DNA of 61,708 nt, counting the filler. It is 3 parts of 3 records of this genome, joined end to end, with 100 filler letters (N's around TTAATTAATTAA, not from the genome) between each part and the next. Parts side by side here need not be neighbours in the genome. Positions count along the whole stretch, not along the records: positions 1 to 16,934 come from SRR22947725_4458; 2 more parts are not named here. The stretch is one strand, 5' to 3'. This document shows, piece by piece, positions 1-16,574 of the stretch. Position 1 is the stretch's first letter, and each line of letters begins with the position of its first letter. The notes below the pieces were generated by a model. The model was not told the DNA's origin, did not search any database, and saw nothing but the letters and a program-made list of their open reading frames with translations. Both the position numbers and the translations under genes were made by a program.

Positions 1-183
1 AGAATTAAGGATTAGCCGCTTGCCCGTCAACTTTGTCTGACAATGCCATCTCGATCAAACTTCTTCCAACCTTTGCCTGCGAAAACATCGTGACCAACCT
101 GCAACGCAACATTGGCGCAATCGACACTGACCTTTTTGTAGACAATCCGGCTCATCGCGAACTTCCCAGAAGTCGATATAGTA

Positions 184-687: not shown

Positions 688-784
688 ATTCTTTATCCTC
701 TCCAGAGCATTGAAGGATGTAGACTTTTGTAAATAAGCTTCATGTGTTTAACAAAAGGCTTCATCCCATAGAATTAGTATAAAT

Positions 785-1627: not shown

Positions 1628-1655
1628 TACTGAGGCTCCTCTTCTGATAGGTATG

Positions 1656-1672
1656 AGCAATTTTTATGCCAA
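1656..1672 (-). promoter_or_regulatory. sigma54 (-24/-12) promoter of the extra flgE/G-like gene
   Basis: Minus strand TTGGCATAAAAATTGCT; exact GG-N10-GC spacing, ~30 nt upstream of the start codon. Confidence 0.8.
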
Positions 1673-1722
1673 AGTTGAGGCAAATATTAGCCCCTCCGAT
1701 TACGCTAGACATGTATGAAGAT

Positions 1723-2991
1723 CTATCCCATGAAGTCGAACAAATTTTTACTACTCAGGCGAGCAAATGTTGCTTGCGCAGCTTCTTTATTTGTCAGCAA
1801 TTCCTGAAGCTTAGTAAGTAACTCTGCCATATCTGCATCTTCAATTTTGGAAATATCTTCACTTAAATCAACGAGAGTGTTTTGCGTACTATCAACAAAA
1901 TTTTGAGCGGTACTGGAAGCCACACCCAACTCTGTACGCTTTGATATGAAATGTTCAAAAACATTATGCAATTTATTTTGAACAGCCAAATTAGATAGTG
2001 AATGTGGTAAAATTATTTCATCACTTACGTTTGAGCCAACTGTCTTTTGTACCCCAATCGATTGATCCGCTGTATTGGGCAAATCAGTAACGAAATTTGA
2101 AATTTTAAGGTCAACGCCATTTCCCGAAAGTCTAATTTTATTAGCTGAAGATACCACCGCAGTTATACCTGACGCAGAAGTATGTTGGTTTATCGCAGCA
2201 ACCAGCCCATTAAAATCATTTGCATAAACATGAGCTTCAACATTATAAATTGCGCCATTAGCTGAAAGATCAAATTTATATTCGTTCATTTGTCCTGAAG
2301 CAGGCAGCACCACGTCTACAGCTGTTCCGTTTGAGAGCAAATTTGAAGATGACCCAGCATAAATACCATAGTCTAGGCTTCTAGAAAATTCATCAAGAGC
2401 TTCAAATATAGAAAATTTTTCATTTCCTGTGTTTGCAGAAAGAAAAACTTCTGTGCCAGAGAAATTCTGTCTTAAATCGCTACCGCGCGAAACTTGCAAA
2501 GTTTTGTTAACAGCTGAACCTACGTAGTTAACTTCACCTAAATTATTAATCTCAAAAGGTTTAGCCGCTACCGACGTGCCAGAAAAATATCCATTTCCAA
2601 GAGCGTCTTGTCCATTTGCGAGGCTAAGAATTTCTTTTTTAATATTAGCAATTTCAATTTGAAACAATTTTCGTTCTTCAGAAGTTAGAAAACCATTTGA
2701 AATCTCAATATGCATTTCTTTCAAACGCACCGAAGCATTCTGCAATTGTTCAAAACTTATATCAATTCTCTCAAGATCAGAAACTATCTGTTCGGCATTA
2801 CTCTTGAACTGAGTGATCTCGAGTTTGTGTTCTTCCGATGCATTTAAGAGCGATATGTCTTGAATATCATGCTTTAATGATAAAGATTTTTTTCCCGTAC
2901 TTACCTGAACTTGTAGATCACTAACCTCATTATTCAAGCGTGAAAAAAGATCTATATTTTTTTGATAAAATCCAGAAGTAGATATCGTCAT
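1723..2991 (-). CDS. flgL: Flagellar hook-associated protein 3 FlgL (enlarged)
   Basis: QVSTGKK, LANGQDALGNGYFSG, C-terminal SKIEDADMAE...NLFDF; follows flgK; GGAG RBS favours the ATG at 2991. Confidence 0.9.
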   Translation of the reverse strand: MTISTSGFYQKNIDLFSRLNNEVSDLQVQVSTGKKSLSLKHDIQDISLLNASEEHKLEITQFKSNAEQIVSDLERIDISFEQLQNASVRLKEMHIEISNGFLTSEERKLFQIEIANIKKEILSLANGQDALGNGYFSGTSVAAKPFEINNLGEVNYVGSAVNKTLQVSRGSDLRQNFSGTEVFLSANTGNEKFSIFEALDEFSRSLDYGIYAGSSSNLLSNGTAVDVVLPASGQMNEYKFDLSANGAIYNVEAHVYANDFNGLVAAINQHTSASGITAVVSSANKIRLSGNGVDLKISNFVTDLPNTADQSIGVQKTVGSNVSDEIILPHSLSNLAVQNKLHNVFEHFISKRTELGVASSTAQNFVDSTQNTLVDLSEDISKIEDADMAELLTKLQELLTNKEAAQATFARLSSKNLFDFMG

Positions 2992-3006
2992 ATTATTCAA
3001 CTCCCG

Positions 3007-6000
3007 CTACATTGATCGCAATAAGGTGTCTAGTAATTCACGAGCTGTAGTTAGCACCCGAGCGAGCGCCTGATAGGCCTGCTGTTGCTCCATTAAGCGT
3101 GCAGCTTCAGTATCGAGGTCAACACCTGTGAATTCATTTTTAATATCCACGGCCAATTGATAAGCTACTTGATTACTTTCTAACGTTTGCTGATTAGCCT
3201 GAATTTCTGCGCCTGTACTAGACACAATATTACCAAAAATTTCGGCATATCCACCAACACCAGTCTGATTATTGCTTAACGACGTATCTAACATATTGTT
3301 TAGATTGCTCGCATCATCAGCATTAGTTGATACTAATACCTTAAACGCGTCACCACCCGCTACTGCACCATCGAAGTCCAACGACAATCCCTGAAACGTA
3401 GTATTATTATCGCTAGCAATTGAACGCGTCCCCACAATATGCCCGGATTGAAAATCATAAATATCGATACTTGTTGGGTCCGCTTTGTTAACCTCGATAG
3501 AATATTCTCTTGTCTCGCTCGTCGTCGCAGTCTTTATTTCTCCAATAGCCAATGGATTGCGAGTGCCGCTCGAAATAAAAATTAAATCTTCACCACGCAT
3601 TCCATCAATAGACAAAACTTCACTGGCCAACGAATTCACCGCCACACTAGACCTAACCCTTTGATCCCCAATATTTGAAATTCTCAAGCCTTCATTAGAA
3701 GCTATGAGCTGTGCCGATATCGTAGAAATGCCATAATTCTTGGAGACCACATTAGATTTTATTCTTATATTCTTATCCCTAGAAGGATTGTCATTTACCA
3801 CCACTTTCACACGAATTTGTGTTGCCACATTTGGGTTCACTTCCGTGGAAAAAGACATCCAGGACGGTAGAGAACCAGACGTTAAGGCTACGGTATTGTT
3901 CGTCGTATCAAAGGAGAAGTCATATTCTGTGTCCCCAATCATCACGGAACCGATGTCATTGTTACTGGCAATAGTTTGCTCAAAATACTTAGAATATATT
4001 TCCGTTTTGGATGTATTTGAAATATGAAAATCAGCGGCCGTTTGGCTGGTATTAGAAGACGAATAGGTAATGCCGTGCCCACTGACAACACCATTATTAG
4101 CCGTTGCAGTTAGCCGGATTCCAGAGCTATCCGATTCAAAATTCACTGTTAAACGATCTGCTTCAGGTCCAGTTACAACAAATTTGGAACTCGAAATGAG
4201 CTCTGAAAGGCCAGCTGAACCTGAATAAGTATTAGTGCCAACAATAACGTTAGTACCTTGAACTTGGACGTCGTCATCTATGTTTAACGTGGCGGTATAT
4301 GTCTGTTCACCTATAGAAAATTGGATCTGCGATCCATCGCTAGGAAAACCATCCGTCAAGTCAAATGTGTCTCCAAAAAATACAGTAGATGTTGCCAGAT
4401 CTCGTAAATTTGAAGCCAAATTACTAGAGATAACACCGGTAGAAAATTCATCAGCTTTCTGGGGCACAAAACTACTTTCTAAATTTCCAAACACTGGATC
4501 AGAAAGAGTTAAACTGTATTTTGATGCTGATGATACAACATTAATATTACTTGCATCCGCATACCCGCTGTCCAATTTATAATTTGCATAAAAACTGATA
4601 TCAGTATGGTCATTTTCGATGTCAAAACTTTTACTGGAAAACCCCATATCAAAGGCTGAGTTAGTGCTGTTTAAATTGTTACCATTGTAGCTAGCCGTGA
4701 AGTCAGAGGTGCTTTTCATCTGCACATTGCCACCAATGACAAGGTGCTGCCCATCAGAAAGTGTCTTAGAATTTGTTAGCATTCTATCACCAAATCGATC
4801 TAATTGATTTACTGAAATTCCAACACCACTGTCTAAATTTACAGTTTTCAATGCGATATCGCCAGCGTCAACATGCTCTAAGATAACACCAGAATTTCCG
4901 CTCGAATAGGCTTTCACCCCAGTCGTGTCTGAAAACGAGTTGATTTGACTTATTAAGCCAGCATGTGAACCATTTGATACAGTTGTACTAATTTGCACGG
5001 TAGATAAGTTGTTTCCAACCAACTCAAATTCCACTAAGCCGTTTGCAATCCCAGATAATTCAACCAAATTTGAAGCAGTGGCACTTATTCCCAAACTGCT
5101 AAGACCCGTTGATAGGCTTTTAGCAATTTGCCCCGCCATCATACCGCTTTCAAAGGTAACGCTAGCACTTCGGCCACTAGCGGTTGTTACCGAAACAGGA
5201 CCAACCAATTGTGTTCGATTTGTTGGAAAGGCATTAGACGCATATACGGAAACATTATTATTAATACTGTCAGGAAAACCTGCGCCAGATAAAGAAATGA
5301 CATCTAGACCTTCAGTTGTCTTTCTAGTGACATTAGCACCTGAAAAGCCTTCATTCGATGATGTTGGCAAATAATTCGCTCTATAAATTGCTTCGCTTGA
5401 AAATCCATTTTCTCGTGTCAGGTAACTTGTTACTTCATCCTGGCTTAAGGTCTTTCCTGAAATTTGTATGCCTTCTTTGGTAAATACGCTCAAATCAGAC
5501 AGGCCAGTATCCTCCCTGGCCAAGATACCAGAAACTCCACCTAATGAACCAGATTCTAACGCCGGAAAATTAGAATTTGACGCCTGCGCTGCCGAAGAAA
5601 TTACGAAACTTGACCCCGATGCAACTGCATGAAGTCCAAGGTCCCTGAACGACTTTAAGGAACTATTTGAGACTATCGCCCCATTATTTAAAATTTCGGC
5701 CAGATCATTCGTTGTATCTAAGTCGTCAAATACAGACGAAATATTAAAAGTGTAGTTAGTTGAATTAAGGGTTACGCTTAATTGGTCAGACGAGCTCAAT
5801 TGAGTTATGTCAGTAAAAATCCGTAAACTTGACTGTGATTTTAAAATCGAGAGTTCTTCAATGGAGCCAACATTTTCAATTACGCCCAAAACACCCAAAG
5901 AGTTAAAACTTGCTGGATTCGCTGCATTTCGTGTGTCTGAAAATAAGCTTTGTAAGTTGGAATTACCGAGAGGAGTATTCTCATTGAAATATCCAATATT

Positions 6001-7344
6001 TAACTTAGACGAGCCAGAGTTTTTAATGTCTGGCTCAACAGAATGAAGACCTGCTGCCGCTAATTTACTTGCATCAGAAATTAAAACTGCCATGTCAGCG
6101 CCAGAAGTATCAGTCACCTCTATGAAAAATTTATCTCCATTTTTTGGCTGTCCCTCAACCGAAATACTTAACTCTCCAAGTTCTAATCGGGATACAAAAT
6201 TTGGTATGGATTCACCCTTACTGCTGGAGACGCTCCAGGAGCCACGTTCCGCATTAAAAATCATTTGTAATTTTGATCCGACTAAACTGTCATTAAAACC
6301 CTCTACCCTTAACGAAATAGCCCCTATATTTGCAGCAGATTTTTGTACAGATACGGCACCTAAACTGAACAAATCAGTTCCCCGTTCTCCATTTAAATCC
6401 AAACCCATGCGATGAATTGAATTCATCTCCAACACAAATTTTTGAGCTAGAGCATTTACTTCAGAAATAGTTTTTCCAGCTAAATTATCGGCAGACACCA
6501 ATCCAGCCAATTGCCCTGAAGAGAAATGGATGCTGGAGAGATTTCCGTTCGGACCATTTAGATACGACTTGATCCCATGGTCATCTGCTTTAAAGGAAAT
6601 TTCGTTAAAGGAATTACCCTCCAAAAGCGTTGCGACCTCACCAAATTTACCCAGAGATACCGTAACACCACCATTTTTATGGTATTCAACACTAATGTCA
6701 GCGAGCTGGCTTATGTTTGAAAGTAGGCTATCCCGCTTATCTAAAAGTGAGTTGGGAGCCCCACTTTTATTCGCATTCCCTAATATTTCATTCTGTATGT
6801 TCGAAAGGTTGCGTAAGTTAGTATTGAACTCTCCTGCCGCAAGGGACAGGGTGTCGTGCGTGAGCGTTCGAAGATCACTCAGTCCAGAATGTAATTGCGA
6901 AATCTCTCTCGAAACAGCCTTCGCTCCAGTAAGCGCTAATGTTCTGAGGTTCATATCAGAAGGGTCTTGGGCAAGGCTATTAATACCGTCAAAAAATTCA
7001 CTTATGCGGGTACCAACTGTGGCACCCTTAGGTATCAGTACATTTTCAAGGCGGTTTAAAATTTCAGACTTTGATTTCGAAAATGAGAACGACGAGGACG
7101 CATTTTGTAATTGTAGATCTAGAAACTGGTCGAATGCTCTAGTGATGCCTCCCATTCGCACACCCAAGCCACTTGTTTTGGAAATTGTCAAAACATCAGC
7201 ACTAGCTACAGTAATTTCCTCGATTGAAGCATCTCGTCTCGCGTAGCCCTCCGTGCCAACGTTTGCAATATTTTGACCTGTAGCTGCTAGGCTACTTTTG
7301 TATGCGCTAATGCCGGCCTTACCAATATCAAATAAGTCTCCCAT
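3007..7344 (-). CDS. flgK: Flagellar hook-associated protein 1 FlgK, giant (1445 aa)
   Basis: N-terminal GQNIANVGTEGYARR, LLDKRD motif, C-terminal GVDLDTEAARLMEQQQAYQALAR; large central insertion. Confidence 0.92.
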   Translation of the reverse strand: MGDLFDIGKAGISAYKSSLAATGQNIANVGTEGYARRDASIEEITVASADVLTISKTSGLGVRMGGITRAFDQFLDLQLQNASSSFSFSKSKSEILNRLENVLIPKGATVGTRISEFFDGINSLAQDPSDMNLRTLALTGAKAVSREISQLHSGLSDLRTLTHDTLSLAAGEFNTNLRNLSNIQNEILGNANKSGAPNSLLDKRDSLLSNISQLADISVEYHKNGGVTVSLGKFGEVATLLEGNSFNEISFKADDHGIKSYLNGPNGNLSSIHFSSGQLAGLVSADNLAGKTISEVNALAQKFVLEMNSIHRMGLDLNGERGTDLFSLGAVSVQKSAANIGAISLRVEGFNDSLVGSKLQMIFNAERGSWSVSSSKGESIPNFVSRLELGELSISVEGQPKNGDKFFIEVTDTSGADMAVLISDASKLAAAGLHSVEPDIKNSGSSKLNIGYFNENTPLGNSNLQSLFSDTRNAANPASFNSLGVLGVIENVGSIEELSILKSQSSLRIFTDITQLSSSDQLSVTLNSTNYTFNISSVFDDLDTTNDLAEILNNGAIVSNSSLKSFRDLGLHAVASGSSFVISSAAQASNSNFPALESGSLGGVSGILAREDTGLSDLSVFTKEGIQISGKTLSQDEVTSYLTRENGFSSEAIYRANYLPTSSNEGFSGANVTRKTTEGLDVISLSGAGFPDSINNNVSVYASNAFPTNRTQLVGPVSVTTASGRSASVTFESGMMAGQIAKSLSTGLSSLGISATASNLVELSGIANGLVEFELVGNNLSTVQISTTVSNGSHAGLISQINSFSDTTGVKAYSSGNSGVILEHVDAGDIALKTVNLDSGVGISVNQLDRFGDRMLTNSKTLSDGQHLVIGGNVQMKSTSDFTASYNGNNLNSTNSAFDMGFSSKSFDIENDHTDISFYANYKLDSGYADASNINVVSSASKYSLTLSDPVFGNLESSFVPQKADEFSTGVISSNLASNLRDLATSTVFFGDTFDLTDGFPSDGSQIQFSIGEQTYTATLNIDDDVQVQGTNVIVGTNTYSGSAGLSELISSSKFVVTGPEADRLTVNFESDSSGIRLTATANNGVVSGHGITYSSSNTSQTAADFHISNTSKTEIYSKYFEQTIASNNDIGSVMIGDTEYDFSFDTTNNTVALTSGSLPSWMSFSTEVNPNVATQIRVKVVVNDNPSRDKNIRIKSNVVSKNYGISTISAQLIASNEGLRISNIGDQRVRSSVAVNSLASEVLSIDGMRGEDLIFISSGTRNPLAIGEIKTATTSETREYSIEVNKADPTSIDIYDFQSGHIVGTRSIASDNNTTFQGLSLDFDGAVAGGDAFKVLVSTNADDASNLNNMLDTSLSNNQTGVGGYAEIFGNIVSSTGAEIQANQQTLESNQVAYQLAVDIKNEFTGVDLDTEAARLMEQQQAYQALARVLTTARELLDTLLRSM

Positions 7345-7353
7345 TTTGGCGCC

Positions 7354-7674
7354 CTATTTAACCAAATCAGTTCGCAACTGACGGACGATCACATCTCTTA
7401 GGCCTAAGTTAAAAGATGTGCTTCCAGCCTGAGACAGTTCACTATCAAACATCTCTTGAAAGTTATCACTTGCGGTAGAACCCAGAAGGTCATCGCTCAA
7501 TTTGCTTTGACGAGCCTGATCTAGAAACATTTTTAGAAATATTGCTTCAAACTGGCTGGCTGCCTCCTCTAATTCTGTTAAATTTTGCAGTTTGGCTCCA
7601 CCCGAGGGATCCATATTTAATTTTGACGTTTTAAACTTGGTCAACATTTCCGCTTGGTTGGGAATATTAGTCAC
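7354..7674 (-). CDS. flgJ: Rod-cap FlgJ, single rod-binding domain (no muramidase)
   Basis: LEEAASQFEAIFLKMFLDQAR...FQEMFDSELS...LGLRDVIVRQL; 106 aa; lies between flgI and flgK. Confidence 0.88.
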   Translation of the reverse strand: MTNIPNQAEMLTKFKTSKLNMDPSGGAKLQNLTELEEAASQFEAIFLKMFLDQARQSKLSDDLLGSTASDNFQEMFDSELSQAGSTSFNLGLRDVIVRQLRTDLVK

Positions 7675-7686
7675 TTAACTACACTC

Positions 7687-8811
7687 CTATATCACAATCA
7701 ATTCAGCATTGAGAGCTCCAGCCTCTCTCAATGCTTCAAGTATTGCGACCAAATCTGATGATGTCGCTCCCACTGCGTTGATTGAATCAACGATGTCGCT
7801 TAATGAAACTCCCTGACCGAATAGAAACGCTTTGGCCACATCTTCTTCAACTTCTATTTCAGTATCTGGATTTTGCACTGCAGGGCCTGCATTTGCATTG
7901 GCGCCTGCACCAACAGCCAACGCATCTGCTTGATCAACATTTACATTTTCATTTACCGTAACTTTTAGGGATCCGTGCGCAACAGCCGCCGGCATAACTT
8001 TAACATCACCACTTATAACTATAGTACCAGTTCTAGAGTTGATAATTATTTTTGCAGGCGGTGAAGCTTTCTCGACATCTAAATTTTCTAACATTGAAAC
8101 AAAGCCGACCTTTTGACTTGGATCATTTGGAGCCCGAACACGAATACTATTTTTATCCAATGGCATAGCCATTCCATCACCAAACGTTTCATTTATAGCT
8201 TGTGAGATATTCAATGCAGTTGAGAAATCGCCTTGATGTAAATTTAAAATTACGAAATCAGTATCAAGAAAAGCTGTTTCCACCATTCTCTCAACCGATG
8301 CACCCCCAGGTATGCGTCCAACTGTTGGTATATTAACTGTTAAAGATGAATTATCCGCACCCTCAACTCCCAATCCGCCAACCACCACATTTCCCTGAGC
8401 AATAGCATATGTCTCTCCATCAGAACCCAGCAAAGGCGACATCAAAAGTGTACCGCCTTTTAACGATTCCGATCCGCCGATTGTGGAAACTGTAACATCG
8501 ATAGTTTGCCCAGGTTTAGAGAAAGGCGGCAACTCCGCCGTCAACATAACTGCTGCCGCATTGTCACCATTAAATCCATCTAACGCACTTGTAATCCCAA
8601 ATCGAGCTACGAGGGACTGCATAGATTGCAATGTAATCCCGGTATTCCCATCCCCGGATCCAGCTAGTCCCACTACGATCCCATAGCCCACAAGCTGGTT
8701 TGAGCGTATGCCCGCAAGTGAGGTAAGGTCTTTTATTCTATCGGCCTGTGCAGGCAAAATAAAAGACTGGAAAAGTCCACAAAACAGAAGAAGGCTGATT
8801 AATTTTTTCAT
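7687..8811 (-). CDS. flgI: Flagellar P-ring protein FlgI
   Basis: Signal peptide then RIKD...[42 protein letters not shown]-terminal AGALNAEL. Confidence 0.97.
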
Positions 8812-8822
8812 TGGGACAACTC

Positions 8823-9479
8823 TTATAAAGGATTAATTGTATCAAGGATCTTGCTGTACCAACCCTTTTTACCTGATGCAGCGATGTCTCCTGCGCCAAT
8901 GTATTGAATATTTGCGTTTGCTATACGGTCAGACGACACAATATTTTTTTCATTAATGTCTTTTGGCCTTACAATGCCATGAACCCGAATATACTCATCA
9001 CCGTTATTTAAAGTGAGCTTTTTTTGACCTAAAATTTCGAGATTTCCATTCTGGAAAACGCGCACTACGTGCACTGAAACTTGTCCATTCAAAGAATTTG
9101 ATTGTGCTGACGAGCCACTACCAGAAAAAGTATTTGCCAAACTAGAACCCAATTTTGTGGATAACTCGGGAGTGCCTAGTGCAGTCGGCAAAGAAATCGA
9201 ACTGTCGTTTGATTTCGCCGTGGCTGCATTTTGTGATTTTGTCGCTTGAAAACTTTCTGCAAATTGGACCGTAATAATGTCGCCAACCATTTGAGCTCTA
9301 CTTTCCATAGAAAATAGATTACCCCTGGTCGCATTAAAAATTGTACCCGAACGATTATTTGTTTCCACGAGAGGCATTTCTTGAGGATACATTGGTTCAA
9401 AGTCGATGCTTACACGATCTGCATTATGCTGGGCGCAGCCAGAGAGCATAATCACTAAAACTGGAACTATTTTATGCAT
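8823..9479 (-). CDS. flgH: Flagellar L-ring lipoprotein FlgH
   Basis: Lipobox [55 protein letters not shown]. Confidence 0.96.
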
Positions 9480-9487
9480 AATTTCGC

Positions 9488-10276
9488 CTATAAATTATTT
9501 GAAATGTAACGCATCATTTCGTCCACAGCGGTTATGGATTTTGAGCTAACTTCATAAGCACGCTGTGTTTCAATCATATCTACTAATTGCTGCACCACAT
9601 TCACATTTGAGCCCTCAACAAATCCCTGTATGACGGAGCCAAAACCACCATCTAAGGGTGCGCCCTCCTGTGGCTGACCGCTCTCTGATGATTCAACCAA
9701 AAAGTTCTGTCCAATTGGAAGCAGACCGCGCGGATTTCCAAAATTTACAAGAGAAATCTGGCCCACCTCTTGCGCAAAAGCGTTTCCAGCCACAGTAACA
9801 TTAACGGCCCCATTCGCTGCAATATTAATATTTGTTGCGTCCTCTGGGATTTCGACCTGTGGCTGAACGACATAACCGCTAGCTGTAGTCAGCAACCCCT
9901 CTGCATTACGCGAAAACGCACCGTCCCGCGTATAACCAACACTACCATCTGGCAATAAAGCTTGGAAAAAGCCTTCACCATCAATTGCAAGATCAAGCGA
10001 ATTATCCGTAGCGACTAGGCCGCCCTGGGTGAAAAGTTTTTGAGTACTCACCACCTTCACACCAGTACCCACCGCAAGTGGAGACGTCAGTGAAGTATCA
10101 TCAGCAGTCTGTGCTCCAGCTTCTTTTATTACTTGGTAAAAAAGGGTTTCAAAATTTGCCCGGTCACGTTTAAAGCCAGTGGTATTAACGTTGGCCAAAT
10201 TGTTCGCAATTACCTGCATTTTGAATTGTTGGGCATTTAGCCCAGTTTTTGCCACGTGCATTGCGGTTGTTGACAT
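9488..10276 (-). CDS. flgG: Distal rod protein FlgG
   Basis: AKTGLNAQQ...IANNLANVNTTGFKRDRANF, LDLAIDGEGFF, EGSNVNVVQQLVDMIETQRAYE. Confidence 0.97.
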   Translation of the reverse strand: MSTTAMHVAKTGLNAQQFKMQVIANNLANVNTTGFKRDRANFETLFYQVIKEAGAQTADDTSLTSPLAVGTGVKVVSTQKLFTQGGLVATDNSLDLAIDGEGFFQALLPDGSVGYTRDGAFSRNAEGLLTTASGYVVQPQVEIPEDATNINIAANGAVNVTVAGNAFAQEVGQISLVNFGNPRGLLPIGQNFLVESSESGQPQEGAPLDGGFGSVIQGFVEGSNVNVVQQLVDMIETQRAYEVSSKSITAVDEMMRYISNNL

Positions 10277-10311
10277 TTCTTCGACCTTTCAACTGACTTA
10301 CGCAGTAGAAG

Positions 10312-10328
10312 AGCAAGGATCGTGCCAA
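10312..10328 (-). promoter_or_regulatory. sigma54 promoter upstream of flgG
   Basis: Minus strand TTGGCACGATCCTTGCT, matching the TGGCACG-N4-TTGC consensus exactly, in the flgF-flgG gap. Confidence 0.9.
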
Positions 10329-10333
10329 ACAAA

Positions 10334-11089
10334 TTATGTTGGTAATCCCATCAATTTTGTACCCGATTTATCAATCTCTTCAGCCTGCTTAATCAATTTA
10401 ACATTTATTTCAAATTGTCGCTGCATATCCATGTTGAATACCATCTCTTCAATTGCATTAACGTTGGAACCCTCCAAAACCCCTTGGGCAAATAAACCAG
10501 ACTGATCAACATCAGGCACAGAACCATCCAAGTTACGAATTTTGCCATCTAAACTCTTAGTCAAGCTGTTGGACGGTGGGGATGCAGAACCCAAAAATCC
10601 AATACTGGTGAAGTCACCCGGCAAAGCTCCAGGCTGATGTACTAATACCTCGCCGTTATCACTGAACTTCATAGCCGTAAACGGAGGCAAGACTATGGGC
10701 TGCAGGCCATCAGACAATACAAGGTTACCAACACCATCGACGAGACGATTTTCAGTATCAACACCAAAGTCACCACGTCGAGATAGTGCAACTTCGCCAT
10801 CCGGTGGTTGGATGAATAAATACGCACCATTCAACAAGGCAACATCAGTTTCTACACCAGTATTTTGAAGTTGTCCTACCTCACTAGAGAAAATTCGATC
10901 TCCCGTTTCCAGCGGGAATATTCTCGCTGTGGCTTGGTTCAAAGACGACAAAAACCCAGCGTTACCCTCGTTAGGTAAATCTCGACGAAAGCCTGGCACA
11001 TTAGCATTTGCCAAGTTATTGGCCAAATCAAATTTAAGATCTTTTAGACCCGTAATTGAGCTTAATGCCGTTTGAACCATTCTATCCAT
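10334..11089 (-). CDS. flgF: Proximal rod protein FlgF
   Basis: MDRMVQTAL...ANNLANANVPGFRRD, C-terminal LEGSNVNAIEEM...RQFEINVKLI; position between flgE and flgG. Confidence 0.93.
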   Translation of the reverse strand: MDRMVQTALSSITGLKDLKFDLANNLANANVPGFRRDLPNEGNAGFLSSLNQATARIFPLETGDRIFSSEVGQLQNTGVETDVALLNGAYLFIQPPDGEVALSRRGDFGVDTENRLVDGVGNLVLSDGLQPIVLPPFTAMKFSDNGEVLVHQPGALPGDFTSIGFLGSASPPSNSLTKSLDGKIRNLDGSVPDVDQSGLFAQGVLEGSNVNAIEEMVFNMDMQRQFEINVKLIKQAEEIDKSGTKLMGLPT

Positions 11090-11105
11090 AGCGTAGAACC
11101 TTTAA

Positions 11106-14100
11106 TTATAGCCTAATGTTAATAATAGTCTGCGTCATGCTAGTTGTAGTTTCCATTGCCTTTGCCGCAGCTTGGTAATTCCGTTGGGCGGTTATTAAGT
11201 TTACCAGTTCTTCCGTAATGTCCACATTGGAACGCTCCAGAGAACCCGAAAGAATATTTCCAAACCCATCCTCAGCAGCTTCACCTAGTTCTGGATCACC
11301 ACTCGCAGCCGTCGACGTAAACGTAGAATTACCAATTTGCTTGAGCCCACTATTGTTACTAAAGTTAGCGATGATTATTTTACCCAAGCTTACATTTTCA
11401 CCATTCGAGTATCCTGCCAGAACATTTCCATAGTTATCAATTTCCAGATTCGTTAACCGACCAGACGCAGCTCCATCTTGGCTAACGTTTTGCGCAGAAA
11501 ATGGTTGTGCAAATTGAGTGGCTTCAGAAAAATCAACCGTGATGCTAGCGTTTGGTAATCCGTCATAACTTACTTTAGTTATTGGACTAATTAATTCTCC
11601 AGCCTTGTTAAAGGTAAGCTCTCCATCATCCAAATATAAAGGATAAAAATCTTCAACGATGTTATCAGCAAAGTCATCTGTGCGCGTAGTGATCTCACCG
11701 GTAGGTGACACAAACAATGGACGCCCCAAATTATCTGTAGCTTGCGTCGGTGTCTTTATTTCAGTGGTGTTTCCTATTCCCAATGGAATATCTTGCAAAC
11801 CAAATCGCAGAGCGCCATCAATTTTAAAAGTCGATGTGTCACCCATTGTACCTGTTGTGAACACAAAATTATTGTTCGCAGCATTGTAGCTAACATCCAC
11901 ACCACCGACTGGCTGCCCCGTAATCGGATGCTGCATTTGATTAATCCTTGCTTCCAAAGCGGTAGCCATCGTTATGCCAGTATAGTTTTTCTCTGGCAGT
12001 TCAATGAACGCACTTACTCCATTGACAACAACATTAAATCTATTCTCGTCGCCTACAGTCGTAAGTGTGAAGGCATTTTGCATGTCAATAAGTGCCTCAG
12101 CTCCCGTCGCAACCGCTGGAGTAGATCTGATACCAGTAGCAGCAGTATAGCCAACCTCACCCTCACGTGGAAAGCCAAGGACCTGGTTTGTACCCGCACC
12201 AATCTTGTGCGCCGTGTATGCTGCTGCATCAGTGGGGTCTTTTTCCCCCAAGATGGTTAATTTATAGCGCCCAATGCTAATGTCAGACTTAGATTGGTTC
12301 GCAGAAACACCTTGCACGCTGTTGGCTGCTAGCGCCTCACCAGTAGACCCACTCTTAAATTCAAATGCATTATTGACGGTATCAAAATAAACATCCATGC
12401 CGAAGCGCTGGTTTTGAGCCTGCACAGCAGGACCATCATTTATAAATGAGTTGCCAATCGCTTTATCGTCGCCGGCAAGGCTAATGTCTTTATTATTGCC
12501 GTAGGCCTGAATACCTATACCGTTCGTGCCTGCTGAAAGAACCTGACTATAAACAGTAAAGTTATTCATCCCAAGGCCAGTGCCCAGTCCCAACTGCGCG
12601 TTATCAGCATCAAATGTTAATCGTTGTTCTTTATCATCATAATTAATTTTTATTGCAGGATTTCGATCATCAACCCAATTAGTGCTCAACGTATTTGTAT
12701 TGAGTCCCAAAGTAGACAACGCTTGGCCAGACGCTAGTGTCCCGGTAAAAGCCAGCGCAGCTCCACCAGCATTTGTTGTTGTGGTTTGAGCCGCTGTTCT
12801 TTTAGCCGATGCGCCGATTTCTTGAACAACAATTTTGTTGGTATAAAAAGCTTCATTTACACCATCCACTAGGCCCTCAGTATCCTCAAAATATGCGACA
12901 ATGTGATCTGACGGTTTTGCTAAAACTTGGATTGGACGCTCGGTAGCTGCGTTAATGGCCGGGAAGGTCGCACCATTCATAGCATAATCTAATGTTACTC
13001 TGTAATGGTTAGAAGACGCCCCAGTTGTTGTCACTTCTGTGACTGCAATATCTTTGTCACCAAACATGGCTGTCATCGCACTTGTAGTTTTACCATTAGC
13101 AGGAAATTGCATAAACCGAACCGTTTCAGGCGTAAGTGTGAACCCAGACGTCGGAACCTCAAAATATGGTTTTCCGGCATGTGGTGTGCCAGCGGCGTGA
13201 ACACCAAATCCAGCAGCCAGTCTTGCTGCGACATTGTTATCATATGCTTTTACGGTAGGTATATTAGCAGAAGCTCCTGTCGCGTCATTCGAGTAAGCTA
13301 AATACCTTGAAGTAGTTACTAGATTGCCACCAGCATCATTGGTTTTGTGAGTTACAGTTGCAATATCATTACCTGTAATTCTTGCCACAGGAATACCCGC
13401 AGCAGGGATAGCGGTGTTGGGAATTACACCAGATACGAGTTTTTTGAACAATCTACCATCAGCATTAAGGGCTGCAACATTTGCTGCATTTACGCCAGCG
13501 GCGCCCGCCCCGCCAACTTCATGAATATACGCATTCAATTCATCATTTATCCGAACCTGTGCGTGGCTTAAAAAATTTGTTTGAGTCATGCCAGCCTTAG
13601 CTTCCGCTGCGGTGTTGACTATAGATGCCTCATGCAAGTCTACTACAATCGGCGTTGCAAGCCCAGTAGACAATCCGTCACCAGTCGTAACCTTCAAATC
13701 AATACTAAATTTATTATCGACATCGTCAGTTAGCTGAATTTTTTTATCGTCTCCAAACGCATTTTTAGTAGCCACTTCAACCGCCGCAGCCAATTGAGTG
13801 CCGTTATATGTCCCAGGAGGGATGTCAATTGAGACTGGACCGCTTGCATCTACGTCAACTAAAAGAAAATCTTTGCCCCAAAAAGTTGATCCAGTTGGAT
13901 TTGCTGTACCGTTAAGACTTTGATATTCACGAGTTGCCTTAAATTGAAGTGGATCAGTTACAATCGTGACAGTTCGGCCATCACCCAAGAATGTTTCAAT
14001 CCCATTCGACTTAAGGGTCGCAGGCGTTGAATCAGTGGCAGCTCCAAGGGCATCAGCCTTATAAAGAGGAAACCCCTTACCCTCTAAAATGTAGGCGGGA

Positions 14101-14891
14101 TCCTGCGGGAGATTAGTTTGTTGCCCAAATTTATCAATATATAAAGCGGCCTCTTGCGGATCAACAGCACGTGTAAGTCTAGGAGTTATCTCCAGTCCAT
14201 CCACCATTAATTTAGTATCATACTTAAACGTTGGATCCGCATCTGTAGAACTTTGCGTTTTCAAATAAAATACAGTAGCGGATTGAGGATTCCCTGAACG
14301 ATCAAAAATAGTCACCGATGAGTTGGATGTGTATGTTTCAGGATCGTCTGGATCAAAAATATTATCCGCAGGCAATACTGGAGAGTCAGACGAAAGATTT
14401 ACGCCCATTGACATCGTGGTAGTTTGCTTCGGCTCACCATACTCAGACTTCAATTGTAGCTTATTTGACCCGGACAACGTTTTGTCAGACACAGCACCAT
14501 CGTCATCCACTGGATAACCCAACAAAAATTGCCCGTTACTGTCGACTATGAAGCCATTGTCATCGACGTTGAATGCACCATTTCTTGTGTAGACAGTTTG
14601 CTGCGCGTTACCGCCAGCTTGCAATGCAAAAAATCCTTGCCCCGAAATTGCCATGTCCAATGAATTGGAAGACGTAGCTATATTACCTTGCGAAAATTGT
14701 TGGGTAATAGACTTTGTTAGTGTACCAACACCAACTGACTTAGCCTGCAGGGGAGTAGACCCATAAATATCACCAAATTCTGCCCGGCTTTTTTTAAAGC
14801 CATTTGAGCCAACGTTAGCGATATTGTTTGAGGTTGTGGAAATATCGGTCTGTGCGCCTTTGAGGCCGGTAAGTGCGGTATAAAACGACAT
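11106..14891 (-). CDS. flgE: Flagellar hook protein FlgE, giant (~1261 aa)
   Basis: MSFYTALTGL...SNNIANVGSNGFKKSRAEFGDIY, QQFSQG, YTRNGAF, FDPDDPETYT, C-terminal QDG..SGRL, LERSNVDITEELVNLITAQRNYQA; GGAG RBS before the ATG at 14891. Confidence 0.95.
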   Translation of the reverse strand: MSFYTALTGLKGAQTDISTTSNNIANVGSNGFKKSRAEFGDIYGSTPLQAKSVGVGTLTKSITQQFSQGNIATSSNSLDMAISGQGFFALQAGGNAQQTVYTRNGAFNVDDNGFIVDSNGQFLLGYPVDDDGAVSDKTLSGSNKLQLKSEYGEPKQTTTMSMGVNLSSDSPVLPADNIFDPDDPETYTSNSSVTIFDRSGNPQSATVFYLKTQSSTDADPTFKYDTKLMVDGLEITPRLTRAVDPQEAALYIDKFGQQTNLPQDPAYILEGKGFPLYKADALGAATDSTPATLKSNGIETFLGDGRTVTIVTDPLQFKATREYQSLNGTANPTGSTFWGKDFLLVDVDASGPVSIDIPPGTYNGTQLAAAVEVATKNAFGDDKKIQLTDDVDNKFSIDLKVTTGDGLSTGLATPIVVDLHEASIVNTAAEAKAGMTQTNFLSHAQVRINDELNAYIHEVGGAGAAGVNAANVAALNADGRLFKKLVSGVIPNTAIPAAGIPVARITGNDIATVTHKTNDAGGNLVTTSRYLAYSNDATGASANIPTVKAYDNNVAARLAAGFGVHAAGTPHAGKPYFEVPTSGFTLTPETVRFMQFPANGKTTSAMTAMFGDKDIAVTEVTTTGASSNHYRVTLDYAMNGATFPAINAATERPIQVLAKPSDHIVAYFEDTEGLVDGVNEAFYTNKIVVQEIGASAKRTAAQTTTTNAGGAALAFTGTLASGQALSTLGLNTNTLSTNWVDDRNPAIKINYDDKEQRLTFDADNAQLGLGTGLGMNNFTVYSQVLSAGTNGIGIQAYGNNKDISLAGDDKAIGNSFINDGPAVQAQNQRFGMDVYFDTVNNAFEFKSGSTGEALAANSVQGVSANQSKSDISIGRYKLTILGEKDPTDAAAYTAHKIGAGTNQVLGFPREGEVGYTAATGIRSTPAVATGAEALIDMQNAFTLTTVGDENRFNVVVNGVSAFIELPEKNYTGITMATALEARINQMQHPITGQPVGGVDVSYNAANNNFVFTTGTMGDTSTFKIDGALRFGLQDIPLGIGNTTEIKTPTQATDNLGRPLFVSPTGEITTRTDDFADNIVEDFYPLYLDDGELTFNKAGELISPITKVSYDGLPNASITVDFSEATQFAQPFSAQNVSQDGAASGRLTNLEIDNYGNVLAGYSNGENVSLGKIIIANFSNNSGLKQIGNSTFTSTAASGDPELGEAAEDGFGNILSGSLERSNVDITEELVNLITAQRNYQAAAKAMETTTSMTQTIINIRL

Positions 14892-14939
14892 CAAGTCACT
14901 CCTTGCAGAAACTTAGTTCAATTCTTGTTGGATAAGTCG

Positions 14940-14956
14940 TGCAATATACATGCCAA
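14940..14956 (-). promoter_or_regulatory. sigma54 promoter upstream of flgE
   Basis: Minus strand TTGGCATGTATATTGCA in the ~110-nt flgD-flgE gap; correct spacing. Confidence 0.82.
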
Positions 14957-15005
14957 AACTAACCAACTAATTATTTTTGGAGCCAGATGCTCCTTGGTAG
15001 TTAAC

Positions 15006-15698
15006 TTATCTAAAGTTGACGGCGTTGCTGACGTCCATTTCACCGAAGTCTTCAACATCGATAAGAACACTTTCAGAATTCCCAGACCCTATAGAAGCGG
15101 ACAACACTCGTGCATAAACAGATGGGTTCAATTCCTGCGGACCTTCACCGAAGTTTATGGTGGCGTTAATCTGAAGGCGGCGATTAGAATTCTGAATTTC
15201 GTCAGGAATATTTTTCCACGAAAAACCAACTAAACCAGCGGCCTGTGGGCCTAAGTCCATGACATTAAGTTCTTCTCCGCTATCAGCGTCACTTATCACA
15301 ACTCTGGCCATGCTGGTCGCCTGAGGTAAATCTAAAACACCATGCAACTCACCCTTATCATCCGGCCGGGATATGTTCCCTGGAACCAAAACCGAGTGCC
15401 CTAATAAATTCGAAGCAGTCGCAATACGGCCCTGATCAAACTTTTCCACAAGAGTTTTCAATGACGAATTAACTTCTTCGATGCCTGTCACTGTGGAGAA
15501 TTGCGCCATTTGAGCAATAAAATCCCCATTATCCATTGGAGCAAACGGGTCCTGATTTTGCAACTGAGTGGTCATCAGCTTTAGAAAATCGGACTGGCCT
15601 AACGTATCAGAGCTAGCTTTGTTAACGTCTTTGTTTGTAGATATTCCTAATTTTTCGAAAAGCGCAGTTTGTGCTGCAGACGGATCAATTGACGACAT
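15006..15698 (-). CDS. flgD: Hook-capping protein FlgD
   Basis: LGQSDFLKLMTTQLQNQDPFAPMDNGDFIAQMAQFSTVTGI. Confidence 0.96.
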   Translation of the reverse strand: MSSIDPSAAQTALFEKLGISTNKDVNKASSDTLGQSDFLKLMTTQLQNQDPFAPMDNGDFIAQMAQFSTVTGIEEVNSSLKTLVEKFDQGRIATASNLLGHSVLVPGNISRPDDKGELHGVLDLPQATSMARVVISDADSGEELNVMDLGPQAAGLVGFSWKNIPDEIQNSNRRLQINATINFGEGPQELNPSVYARVLSASIGSGNSESVLIDVEDFGEMDVSNAVNFR

Positions 15699-15711
15699 AA
15701 TGTTTCTAACC

Positions 15712-16128
15712 TCACTTACCCATACTAATTGTACGCATCATCAAGCCACGCAACGTTGTGACCATTTCTACGTTGTTTTCGTATTGCCGAGACGCCTCTA
15801 GCATCTCTACTAATTCTTCATCTACGTTCACCGCTGCAGTATATATGAACCCATCTTTGTCGGCCTTTGGATGCCCAGGCTGATATGACTTCTCAGCGGG
15901 CCGATCGACTGTAATAATTTCATCAACGTCAACGGAAGACACACCAGTCTTTTGAACATCATCTGCATAAACTGATTTAAACACTGCCTTTATGGCTTTG
16001 TAGGCTTCGGCATCAGAAGACGCGACAGTTCTTGCGTTGGCCAAATTACTCGCAACTGTGTTAAGACGCACCATCTGGGCAGACATACCCCTACCGGCGA
16101 TATCGAAAATGTTTTTAATATCCGACAA
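15712..16128 (-). CDS. flgC: Rod protein FlgC
   Basis: IFDIAGRGMSAQMVRLNTVASNLANA, YQPGHPKADKDGF, VNVDEELVEMLEASRQYENN. Confidence 0.96.
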   Translation of the reverse strand: MSDIKNIFDIAGRGMSAQMVRLNTVASNLANARTVASSDAEAYKAIKAVFKSVYADDVQKTGVSSVDVDEIITVDRPAEKSYQPGHPKADKDGFIYTAAVNVDEELVEMLEASRQYENNVEMVTTLRGLMMRTISMGK

Positions 16129-16129
16129 G

Positions 16130-16516
16130 CTATTCTCCTTTAATGGCCGACATTAAGCCACTGAATTTTCGGTTTAAAAATTCCAAAGAGGTTTGGTATC
16201 GCATTACATTTTCAGAAAACTGCATCTGCTCAACGTGGAGCTCTACAGTGTTGCCATCAACAGACGGGTTTATTGATTGTCGAAATTGAGCCGCCTCATC
16301 ACCACTACCAGTATAAAATTTAAAATGACGTTCATTAGAAACATTTACAGGTCCGACATCCATTCGAGCCTGCAGCGCCTGATTGAAGTCAATATCCCTA
16401 GCCTTAAAGTTCGGTGTCGCAGAGTTCACAATATTGGATGCCAAAATTTCATTTCGTTTGGATCGCAGATTTAATGCGTCCGCATGCGTCTGTATATGAT
16501 TTGCTATCGACTTCAT
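16130..16516 (-). CDS. flgB: Rod protein FlgB
   Basis: ALNLRSKRNEILASNIVNSATPNFKARDIDF, SVDGNTVE, YQTSLEFL. Confidence 0.96.
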   Translation of the reverse strand: MKSIANHIQTHADALNLRSKRNEILASNIVNSATPNFKARDIDFNQALQARMDVGPVNVSNERHFKFYTGSGDEAAQFRQSINPSVDGNTVELHVEQMQFSENVMRYQTSLEFLNRKFSGLMSAIKGE

Positions 16517-16557
16517 TTTACGATCATCACTTGCAATGTTACGTTTGGTGTGGATGT

Positions 16558-16574
16558 TGCAAGGAGTGTGCCAA
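16558..16574 (-). promoter_or_regulatory. sigma54 promoter upstream of flgB
   Basis: Minus strand TTGGCACACTCCTTGCA, ~40 nt upstream of the flgB ATG. Confidence 0.88.

Follow-up and report, generated by a model that had tools for sequence, protein, structure and literature searches.

FlgE of Salmonella is given as 403 aa (PMC7277832), and in Campylobacter jejuni the protein reaches 851-864 aa through domains nested inside D2 (PDB 5az4; PMC5097172). According to the available text of the latter report, these domains, D3 and D4, stiffen and strengthen the Campylobacter hook, are stated to be found only in Epsilonproteobacteria, and vary at the surface in a way that is related to selection on exposed determinants. 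Axial proteins of more than 1000 aa have also been described in the marine bacteria Bermanella marisrubri and Oleibacter marinus, whose giant flagellins carry extra central domains that thicken the structure (PMC6248924); that work concerns the filament, and its available text uses FlgE solely to train a filter. In R. sphaeroides (Cereibacter), FlgK has 1363 aa, of which 860 residues make up a central region; the hook-associated region is described as bulky, and FlgE1 is of normal length, 423 aa (PMC7277832). The fla1-type gene order is motB-flgE-flgK-flgL-flgI (PMC12363192, Table 1).

Here we analyse a window of 61,708 nucleotides, the whole stretch of DNA at our disposal, which is a composite of three organisms with joins at ~16934 and ~30166, both outside the gene described below. 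This gene, flgE, belongs to a marine alphaproteobacterium with a gamma-type flagellar cluster, unlike the FlgE genes of Campylobacter and related Epsilonproteobacteria. Its product is three times the usual size because ~860 extra amino acids, predicted to form nested folded domains, lie inside the outer domain.

Results

The sequence-only reading of this DNA had described a FlgE frame of ~1261 aa at 11106-14891. This is a single open reading frame on the minus strand (the strand had been left unstated), running from an ATG at 14891 to a stop codon at 11106-11108, which is included in that interval. The computed product has 1261 aa, 132.5 kDa, a pI of 4.5 and no cysteine. The gene is placed between flgD and flgF, on the same strand as both (Table 1), and the same flg gene order is found in related loci. 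The flgB-to-flgL order seen here and in the fla3 type differs from the fla1-type order (available text of PMC12363192). Likened by gene content alone, the cluster has its gamma-type order and accessory genes in common with the R. sphaeroides Fla1, fla3-type Rhodobacterales cluster. FlgG, FlgJ and FlgK of the window have 262, 106 and 1445 aa, respectively; FlgJ of R. sphaeroides is likewise short and is not known to carry a muramidase domain. A giant FlgK (1445-1452 aa) accompanies the giant flgE in all six related loci that reach that far; such a FlgK is common to this system and R. sphaeroides Fla1, and beside a giant FlgE it recalls the bulky hook-associated region reported there (PMC7277832).

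Table 1. Features of the giant flgE gene and its surroundings, in positions of the window; residues are those of the giant FlgE
Feature	Position	Strand	Basis
Operon flgB, C, D, E, F, G, H, I, J, K, L + 291-aa FlgE-like paralogue + YbjQ-like protein	184..16516	(-)	Pfam, NCBIfam
FlgE-like paralogue without D2, 291 aa	785-1660	(-)	NCBIfam FlgE models are best equivalog matches, none past cut-off
flgF (251 aa)	10334-11089	(-)	Pfam
flgE, giant hook protein	11106..14891	(-)	ORF and translation; Pfam FlgE domains at both ends; NCBIfam
D2 C-terminal half (1090-1130, from GELTFNKAGEL) and D1/D0 (1131-1261)	11109..11624	(-)	Pfam Flg_bbr_C; split D2 structural alignments
Segment A2 (1045-1092), returning arm to D2	11616..11759	(-)	Motif located
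Insertion in D2 (233-1089, 857 aa, 89.9 kDa)	11625..14195	(-)	Motif positions
B2 domain (922-1044), uninterrupted copy, FliD-D3/flagellin/phage-sheath outer-domain fold	11760..12128	(-)	VIA-align
B1 C-terminal hairpin (830-853), contains GMDVYFDTVNNAFEFKSGSTG	12333..12404	(-)	Shuffle test; hhalign E 4.9e-7
Inner nested unit (381-829, 449 aa), inserted after B1 helix	12405..13751	(-)	AF2 model 2
Fast-evolving tip (~421-660), includes small beta-barrel ~552-659	12912..13631	(-)	Low identity, highest dN
B1 N-terminal part (~340-380), strand-strand-helix, contains IDIPPGTYNGTQLAAAVE	13752..13874	(-)	hhalign to B2, E 6.1e-6
Segment A1 (236-285), outgoing arm from D2	14037..14186	(-)	Motif located
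D2 N-terminal half (161-232), ends YDTKLMVDG	14196..14411	(-)	Pfam FlgE_D2; D2 structural alignments
N-terminal D0, Dc, D1 (1-160)	14412..14891	(-)	Pfam Flg_bb_rod 3-33, D1 81-125
Ribosome-binding site AAGGAG	14892..14910	(-)	7 nt 5' of ATG, read from sequence
flgD	15006-15698	(-)	Pfam

The protein is a FlgE. Hook motifs had been noticed at both ends, and Pfam finds there PF00460 Flg_bb_rod (residues 3-33; 21.1 bits against a cut-off of 20.7), PF22692 D1 (81-125; 43.9 bits), PF07559 FlgE_D2 in two stretches (165-297; 50.8 bits) and PF06429 Flg_bbr_C (1215-1259; 59.8 bits). Together the two ends sum to a normal 404-aa FlgE, and both flanks of the predicted model align in VIA-align to solved FlgE D2 domains (8z5y_D, Z 10.4; 1wlg, 9.2; 6jzt, 8.9; 9wx3, 8.6-8.8). 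In NCBIfam, the FlgEFG subfamily model TIGR03506 was passed (277 bits against 70.25), and the FlgE equivalog cut-off was not reached, the best model, NF004240, giving 371.1 bits against 472 in two stretches, a shortfall that fits the 857-residue interruption. In an alignment with the FlgG of the window, FlgE has an 11-residue gap at residues 50/51, the FlgG-type stretch being absent; in FlgG this extra stretch is reported to stiffen the rod (title of reference 89 in PMC7277832). The sizes previously quoted for comparison (about 400 aa in enteric bacteria, less than 900 aa in Campylobacter) agree with the published lengths of 403 and 851-864 aa (PMC7277832 and PMC5097172, available text).

All the motifs quoted in the sequence-only reading were found in the sequence, and its insert of ~850 aa at ~11630-14190 was refined to 857 aa at 11625-14195, between YDTKLMVDG (residues 224-232) and GELTFNKAGEL (1090-1100). 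An AlphaFold2 model of residues 150-1130 (model 1) gave a confident fold (pLDDT 89.7), in which the several extra outer domains proposed earlier appear as confidently predicted domains nested in D2. The insert had no family match in Pfam, even at E 10, and no sequence match in PDB. Flagellin_IN (PF07196), a candidate for motif B, was rejected, with no Pfam match to the insert or to B2 alone at the same E of 10.

Motif B is a true duplicated domain, one copy of which is split by a nested unit of 449 aa. Its repetition, already claimed from the sequence, lies beyond chance by shuffles, by family profiles and by an unbiased scan. In Smith-Waterman comparisons with B2, the C-terminal part of B1 gave z 6.7 and the joined B1 halves z 6.4, scores that none of 500 shuffles attained in either case, and hhalign of the family profiles gave E 4.9e-7 for the C-terminal hairpin and 6.1e-6 for the N-terminal part. 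When the B2 profile was scanned over residues 150-1130, the two B1 halves were its best two non-self matches, in the right order; the hairpin came top, and the N-terminal part, with a predicted secondary structure of E204-206, E211-213 and H215-230 (model 1 numbering), second or third. B2 (model residues 773-895) aligns as a whole domain, over 102-113 positions at an rmsd of 2.5-3.2, with phage sheath proteins (7kh1_A6 and 9b42_S, both Z 9.9; 8env, 9.2), with FliD (6kty, 8.4; 5fhy, 8.3) and with V. cholerae FlaA (9n8h, 8.2). It has its fold in common with the outer domains of FliD (D2-D3), flagellin and phage contractile sheaths, with no detectable sequence relationship to them; unlike in those proteins, the domain is duplicated in the giant FlgE and one copy hosts the 449-residue insertion.

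The second claimed repeat, that of motif A, lacks statistical support. For A1 and A2, segments picked after the fact, the score (z 3.4) was attained by 3 of 500 shuffles, and a profile comparison gave a probability of 6.5%; they are each other's top non-self match, yet at P 0.07 and 0.012. Self-BLASTP of the giant FlgE gave no off-diagonal match, nor did Tandem Repeats Finder detect a repeat at the DNA level.

The first B copy had been described as interrupted by a long Ala/Gly/Thr-rich segment; the split, by ~450 residues, stood, and the composition did not, A+G+T amounting to 35% against 27.5% in the core, a mild bias in a segment that is confidently folded and not of low complexity. In model 2 (pLDDT 89.5, pTM 0.88) this inner unit, residues 381-829, apparently comprises at least three further domains, themselves nested. 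VIA-align gave a split jelly-roll-like match at 1..439 (Z 7.1), a split FliD/sheath-like match at 100..360 (Z 4.5-4.8) and a contiguous barrel at 172..279 (Z 5-6), all in model 2 numbering, and none at Z 8; Foldseek against PDB gave nothing at E<=1e-3. Since the inner 449 residues resemble no known fold convincingly (best Z 7.1), a non-mechanical role is possible. The adhesive or anti-phage surface suggested in the sequence-only reading is hypothetical: structural searches of the insert brought up no fold indicative of binding or of an enzymatic function.

Small-genome marine bacteria commonly carry the giant hook gene. Of 8000 candidates scored, 1631 proteins were matched at E<=1e-3; 120 homologues among the matches listed are 58-98% identical and have 975-1349 aa, full-size ones (1215-1349 aa) being abundant in marine metagenomes. 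The insert has 299 relatives at E<=1e-3 in a 50% representative library. Among 401 genomes sampled from the same family, 14 carry it, as open frames of 1244-1469 aa and some contig-end fragments; among 401 sampled from the same class, 10 carry its conserved module. The sequence-only reading had raised the possibility that the architecture is both common and structurally characterised, of which only the former was found: our literature search returned no paper and no solved structure for a giant FlgE with such an insert, and the gene appears unstudied.

Divergence along the protein supports conservation of the giant FlgE under purifying selection. dN/dS was 0.01-0.24 for most parts and 0.70 for the tip, the latter value being that against the 98%-identical L001 copy, the closest pair, and coming from few changes. 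In close homologues the tip is 35-53% identical, as against 60-80% elsewhere, with more indels and the highest dN of the protein. The suggestion that the innermost segment is hypervariable thus holds in a weak sense for the tip, the fastest-evolving part between species, and does not hold within populations: a 2874-nt contig covering 11716-14589 of the window is present, gap-free and with 15-21 differences, in three separate public runs, which therefore give no sign of hypervariation there. An RNA library is among these runs, and 70-81% of the words of the gene were present in six RNA-library runs; this is only a hint of expression, because RNA libraries can contain DNA.

Discussion

We consider, with a probability of roughly 0.6, that the giant FlgE is a working hook subunit and that the hook it builds is thick and reinforced, its exposed tip being variable. 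The host would be a low-GC Planktomarina-like roseobacter with a gamma-type polar flagellar system, and the ordinary FlgE ends would form the usual hook tube, polymerising via D0, Dc and D1. The outgrowth would leave and re-enter D2 through arms A1 and A2 and would bear two small alpha/beta domains of the FliD D3/flagellin/phage-sheath outer-domain fold, the first of them split by the unit of further nested domains that ends in the fast-evolving tip. On the assembled hook the insert domains may form successive outer layers, whose extra subunit-to-subunit contacts would stiffen and strengthen the hook, like Campylobacter D3/D4, freedom to vary being limited to the outermost tip. A thicker hook follows from the added mass of FlgE, and its width is estimated at 25-32 nm, calculated with an assumed helical rise. 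The data themselves establish that the gene is intact and encodes a FlgE, where the insertion lies, that it folds with confidence in the models, that it contains a duplicated domain and that it is conserved under purifying selection; polymerisation, hook width, lattice contacts and a mechanical role are what we infer from the model and the gene, and altered stiffness we infer only by analogy with C. jejuni D3/D4 (PMC5097172, available text). As a whole, the observations of the sequence-only reading were partly confirmed and its interpretation partly supported.

The likeness to C. jejuni FlgE lies in the nesting of extra domains inside D2 and in outer domains that are surface-exposed and variable there (available text of PMC5097172), as they appear to be here. 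The insert is about twice that of Campylobacter, its 857 residues making up at least five or six domains where Campylobacter has two. Our model aligns with C. jejuni 5az4_A only via D2, split in both (Z 6.8; model 7..977, chain 169..723), and no alignment of the insert, searched as multi-domain models, with D3/D4 is among the structural matches listed; the analogy is therefore functional and not evidence of homology. The flgE_epsilon equivalog (TIGR02489) was likewise not passed, at 157.5 bits against 412.85, its best stretch covering only the C-terminal 128 residues.

A bolder form of this explanation, which we offer tentatively and think rather doubtful, is a hook ~30 nm wide that carries its own armour. 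About 120 subunits would each contribute at least six nested domains to a continuous coat on the outside, capped by a matching collar of giant FlgK, and the hook would drive a thin filament of ~275-aa flagellin, the fast-evolving tip being the face shown to phages and grazers. The coat could have arisen from one small FliD/phage-sheath-like domain that inserted repeatedly into copies of itself, each time at the same loop. In the nearest public assembly, G002, the flagellin appears small (~275 aa, read across two frameshifts), so that a thick hook would join a thin filament, unlike in the giant-flagellin species. If true, thick flagellar structures would have been reached by a third independent route, in addition to those of Campylobacter hooks and giant flagellins, with hook mechanics unlike those of the flexible enteric universal joint, and a trait of abundant small-genome marine alphaproteobacteria.

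It is unlikely, to our mind, that the outgrowth is mainly an interaction surface, its tip serving attachment to particles or algae or forming a variable shield against flagellum-binding phages or grazers. The low conservation, highest dN and dN/dS of 0.70 of the tip would suit such a role, as would weak fold echoes of phage tail-spike and capsid-decoration proteins, and the variability of C. jejuni D3/D4 has likewise been related to selection on exposed determinants (PMC5097172, available text). However, no lectin, adhesin or enzyme fold was matched at a convincing score in VIA-align (best Z 7.1) or, in Foldseek against PDB, at E<=1e-3, and most of the 857 residues are conserved under purifying selection, a constraint unnecessary for a mere shield; the hook surface is very small compared with that of the filament, and one dominant sequence is found across the contigs of the three runs.

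Two further observations count against our preferred explanation: FlgE1 of R. sphaeroides, the studied relative with this kind of gene cluster, is of normal size (PMC7277832), and a D2-less FlgE-like paralogue is conserved in the operon, kept 3' of flgL in all six related loci that extend far enough. This 291-aa paralogue could build the hook or a portion of it, the giant protein forming only a short collar or a specialised segment; the N- and C-terminal regions of the paralogue are FlgE-like, 34-36% identical to those of the giant FlgE, and FlgE models are its best NCBIfam equivalog matches. We regard this as improbable, since the giant gene occupies the canonical slot between flgD and flgF and alone carries the FlgE-specific D2, whereas the paralogue clears none of the FlgE equivalog cut-offs and has about the length of the rod proteins of the window, FlgF (251 aa) and FlgG (262 aa). 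For a minor component, moreover, keeping 857 inserted residues strongly conserved would be costly.

As far as the data go, they refute the view that the long frame is chimeric, decaying or an artefact of assembly: the whole window is built from three sources, and G002 has frameshifts in other flagellar genes, but both joins fall outside flgE, no chimera or mis-assembly (a concern of the sequence-only reading) was found inside the frame, which is therefore not chimeric, its insert being crossed without gaps by contigs of identical length in three public runs, homologues of near-identical length among the matches listed come from many separate contigs, seven related loci have intact frames of 1244-1349 aa, and the gene is under purifying selection with a confidently predicted fold. 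The accessory genes that the cluster has in common with R. sphaeroides Fla1 lie upstream in G002: they encode FlhA, an FlhF-like product (425 aa, at the place of FlhF), FlhG, FliA and an LPP20-domain (FlgP-like) protein. The rpoN gene adjoins that of the flagellin.

An intact gene for a giant hook protein

The hook gene, flgE, codes for a protein of 1261 residues (computed mass 132.5 kDa, pI 4.5, no cysteine), and the motif AAGGAG lies 7 nt 5' of its ATG. The coordinates and single open frame given by the sequence-only reading were confirmed, the strand being minus, and all of the motifs it had quoted were located in the protein. Giant FlgE passes the NCBIfam model of the FlgE/F/G subfamily (277 bits, cut-off 70). 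FlgE equivalogs rank top among the NCBIfam models and none reaches its own cut-off, the best scoring 371 against 472 bits, a shortfall to be expected because the protein is interrupted. Pfam assignments give the minus-strand order flgB-C-D-E-F-G-H-I-J-K-L, with the giant gene between flgD and flgF. Furthermore, when giant FlgE is aligned with the window's FlgG, 11 residues of the FlgG Dc region have no counterpart in giant FlgE, which marks the latter as a hook-type rather than a rod-type protein. Without the insert, the two flanks would make a protein of 404 aa (42.6 kDa), which matches enteric FlgE in size.

Public sequencing data and related loci bear on the integrity of the frame. Of the words sampled from the gene, 70% or more turned up in each of 19 public runs from 11 studies, six of the 19 being RNA libraries. 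We compared the contigs of four runs, X4 and X12, taken by guess to be DNA, and X14 and X17, which are RNA libraries. In each of X4, X12 and X14 a contig of 2874 nt spans window positions 11716-14589 without gaps, with 15, 16 and 21 differences, respectively; in X17 the region is covered piecewise, and one piece, at a depth of about 4, carries a 1-base deletion. Intact frames of 1244-1349 aa occur in seven related loci. The gapless contigs and these seven frames rule out a misassembly or a pseudogene, and the mis-assembly or chimera inside the frame against which the sequence-only reading had cautioned was not seen. Because RNA libraries can hold DNA, expression of giant flgE is only hinted at.

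Coordinates of the features discussed in the text
Feature	Position	Strand	Remarks
flgE open reading frame	window 11106-14891	minus	start ATG 14891, stop 11106-11108
FlgE rod/hook N-terminal motif	residues 3-33		Pfam
FlgE D1	residues 81-125		Pfam
FlgE_D2	residues 165-297		Pfam, two stretches
FlgE C-terminal helix	residues 1215-1259		Pfam
FlgE insert	residues 233-1089; window 11625-14195
B1, N-terminal strand-helix part	residues 355-372
B1, C-terminal hairpin	residues ~831-853
B2	residues 922-1044
Inner unit	residues 381-829
Inner-unit domain built from both ends	model range 1..439		VIA-align
Inner-unit second domain	model range 100..360		weak FliD/sheath likeness, Z 4.5-4.8
Inner-unit small beta-barrel, contiguous	model range 172..279 = residues 552-659		Z 5-6
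FlgE-like protein	window 785-1660	minus	291 aa
FlgK	window 3007-7344	minus	1445 aa
FlgJ	window 7354-7674	minus	106 aa, rod-binding domain alone, no muramidase domain (Pfam)
Heliorhodopsin gene	window 18380-19186	plus	Pfam E 4e-92
Flagellin / flhA observations in the nearest public assembly, G002	L010 1468-2300; L002 2114-4239		related genome loci

A duplicated domain nested within D2

The insert is bounded by YDTKLMVDG, which ends at residue 232, and GELTFNKAGEL, which begins at residue 1090. An AlphaFold2 model of residues 150-1130, built on an alignment of 91 sequences, reached a mean pLDDT of 89.7 and a pTM of 0.82. Solved D2 domains fit both of its ends in VIA-align (8z5y_D, Z 10.4; 1wlg, Z 9.2; 6jzt, Z 8.9; 9wx3, Z 8.6-8.8), and this placement across the two ends puts the insertion within D2. 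The boundaries of the domains of the insert were taken from the ranges aligned by VIA-align together with secondary structure.

On sequence comparison, motif B is a real duplication, as the sequence-only reading had proposed, with one split copy (B1) and one intact copy (B2). The C-terminal hairpin of B1 matches B2 with z 6.7, a score reached by none of 500 shuffles, and with E 4.9e-7 when family profiles are compared; the N-terminal part of B1 matches B2 with E 6.1e-6 in the profile comparison. When the B2 profile is run over residues 150-1130, the two pieces of B1 are the top two non-self matches, in the correct order, and their secondary structure (strand-strand-helix, then hairpin) agrees with that of B2. 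The inner unit, of 449 residues, splits B1 behind the helix. A third, weak match to the B2 profile at residues 747-760 is not significant (P 0.01-0.03) and hints at a further degenerate copy within the inner unit. Self-BLASTP of the protein gave no off-diagonal matches, and Tandem Repeats Finder reported no repeats in window 11000-15000.

The proposed repeat of motif A is not established by its sequence: the paired segments A1 and A2, chosen post hoc, score z 3.4, a value that 3 of 500 shuffles also attained, and their profile probability is 6.5%; the two are reciprocal best non-self matches, though only at P 0.07 and 0.012. A1 is the outgoing and A2 the returning arm that link D2 with the outer domains. 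The Ala/Gly/Thr-rich segment said to interrupt the first B copy is mildly biased (35% vs 27.5% in the core), and this region is well folded.

No Pfam match was found for the insert, for B2 alone or for the inner unit, even at E 10, and the idea that motif B corresponds to Pfam Flagellin_IN was dropped as unsupported by this search. Among PDB sequences, phmmer found no relatives of the insert at E 1. At the level of structure, B2 forms a compact domain in the model that matches the outer domain of phage sheaths (7kh1_A6 and 9b42_S, Z 9.9; 8env, Z 9.2) and also FliD D2-D3 (6kty, Z 8.4; 5fhy, Z 8.3) and V. cholerae FlaA (Z 8.1-8.2), all by VIA-align. A separate AlphaFold2 model of the inner unit (pLDDT 89.5, pTM 0.88) gave no convincing known fold in VIA-align, with a best Z of 7.1 and none at 8 or more, and the ranges aligned within this model suggest further nesting. 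Neither model had a PDB match at E<=1e-3 in Foldseek, which gave a single unnamed match (E 4e-4) against BFVD; in the ESM Atlas, searched by features with residues 400-830, the best score was 0.82, under the usable level. A two-copy complex prediction of the inner unit, made with the alignment unused and with a fold that was uncertain in one run or more, scored 0.00 and points neither towards nor away from self-association.

The hook locus

The window's FlgK is also giant. Its ends are normal, and the roughly 1000 residues at its centre show no sequence relationship to the FlgE insert; when the two inserts were compared no similarity was found, the alignment being confined to the termini. Giant FlgK (1445-1452 aa) is present in all six related loci that reach its position. 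Directly after flgL lies the gene for a FlgE-like protein with D0 and D1 and without D2, which shares 34-36% identity with the termini of giant FlgE.

In G002, a Planktomarina assembly, the genes upstream are those for FlhA, FlhG, FliA and an LPP20-domain protein, with an ORF of 425 aa at the FlhF position. Together with these genes, the window's hook locus resembles the Fla1 system of R. sphaeroides, which the available text of two sources assigns to fla3, a Rhodobacterales type that has spread horizontally (PMC12363192, PMC5030684). According to the available text of a third (PMC7277832), FlgK of that system is giant as here (1363 residues vs 1445), with a bulky hook-associated region, whereas FlgE there is of ordinary length, at 423 residues. 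The sole flagellin found in G002, of about 275 aa, is readable only across two frameshifts, and flhA is in three pieces; the assembly looks error-prone. If this flagellin really is so small, the thick hook would carry a thin filament.

The window is composite, from three sources. Bases 181-16934 match G002 at 97%, and about 30166-61708 match G001, a genome of 1.7 Mb, at 95-96%; bases 16935-30165, with a GC of 47-58% vs about 41% for the G002 loci, closely match neither genome. The joins lie at 16934 and about 30166; the first cuts an ORF (16484-16990) that has 181 aa in G002, and the hook gene, 2 kb away, is unaffected. G001 belongs to a family of small genomes without flagella, with FlgE_D2 in none of 122 genomes; this family is related to another part of the composite window and has no bearing on the hook gene. 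A heliorhodopsin gene lies in the high-GC middle segment and so comes from another organism than the hook operon; since the window is composite, neither this gene nor the metabolic genes on the right adjoin that operon in a real genome. An Rfam search of the window had no hits.

Divergence and proposed role of the insert

Identity by region was computed among 54 close homologues with the window protein as reference. It was 0.59-0.82 over most of the length and 0.35-0.53, with more gaps, at residues 420-660, in the tip of the insert (residues 421-660). The tip also had the highest dN in each pair examined, and is thus the part that evolves fastest between lineages. Against the copy in the related locus L001 (98% identical), dN/dS, based on few changes, was 0.70 in the tip, 0.47 in the link plus B2 and 0.01-0.24 in most other parts; dS was saturated in more distant pairs. 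The hypervariability suggested for the innermost segment by the sequence-only reading holds in a weak sense, between lineages, and finds no support within populations, where three runs share one contig, as judged from contigs, in which rare variants drop out. In the same comparison with L001, dS was 0.246 in the D0/D1 ends (11109-11501 and 14412-14891) and about 0.04 in most other parts, and these conserved ends fragment into many short contigs in the runs examined, which suggests recombination or co-assembly among strains there.

As the flagellum's universal joint, the hook determines through its mechanics the turning of polar-flagellated marine bacteria and the torque that reaches the filament. 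Homology predicts that the core of giant FlgE assembles into a hook tube of the usual kind, on which the nested domains of the insert would form outer layers. For an assumed rise of 4.1 Å per subunit and packing fractions assumed to lie at 0.5-0.8 (this formula yields 0.49 for the Salmonella hook), giant FlgE would, by its mass, make a hook about 25-32 nm in outer diameter. D3 and D4 of C. jejuni are similarly inserted in D2, and on this parallel we favour, with a probability of roughly 0.6, a hook reinforced and stiffened by the insert, whose exposed tip varies. That the outgrowth serves mainly as an adhesive or protective surface seems unlikely; the rapid divergence of the tip between lineages speaks for it, and the one dominant sequence across three runs against it. 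More improbable still is a minor role for giant FlgE beside the D2-less paralogue, which is kept at the same place, followed by a YbjQ-like gene of 167 aa, in all six related loci reaching it (partially in L001). Giant FlgE, three times the normal size, costs together with giant FlgK about 8 kb of a 2.5-Mb genome; that streamlined ocean bacteria have conserved it implies that the benefit is strong. A reinforced hook of this kind would offer a natural test of outer domains tuning hook stiffness, and giant FlgE a clear example of domain growth via nested insertion. Neither the literature nor a PDB sequence search yielded a solved structure of, or an experiment on, giant FlgE; no paper on it was found, and the available portions of one on giant flagellins (PMC6248924) do not treat FlgE.

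Distribution of the insert

A word-indexed search supplied 8000 scored candidates of 693-2207 aa, 1631 of which reached E<=1e-3 with giant FlgE; the 120 matches listed range from 58 to 98% in identity and from 975 to 1349 aa in length, with Planktomarina among the source names. With the insert alone as query, a full HMMER scan gave 299 representatives at E<=1e-3, of which 169 remained at 1e-10 and 46 at 1e-30. FlgE_D2 was present in 36 of 37 longer representatives chosen from these, the complete ones having 887-1712 aa, and the 37 chiefly share the part of the insert closest to D2. Related loci are labelled uncultured Planktomarina, Rhodobacteraceae and Ascidiaceihabitans, and one contig of 2.3 kb is labelled Porticoccaceae.

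In an even sample of the G002 family the insert was found in 14 of 401 genomes, as frames of 1244-1469 aa and contig-end fragments. In a sample of the class of G002, the conserved module (residues 860-1089) occurred in 10 of 401 genomes, all of 1.4-2.5 Mb, in frames of 1254-1516 aa and one of 676 aa. A survey of Flg_bbr_C in 201 genomes listed mostly rod proteins. One distant metagenomic relative, P0148, is a single frame of 2492 aa with 28 ALTTAQ repeats, FlgE_D2 and a FlgD Ig-like domain, the possible result of a fusion or of faulty gene calling.
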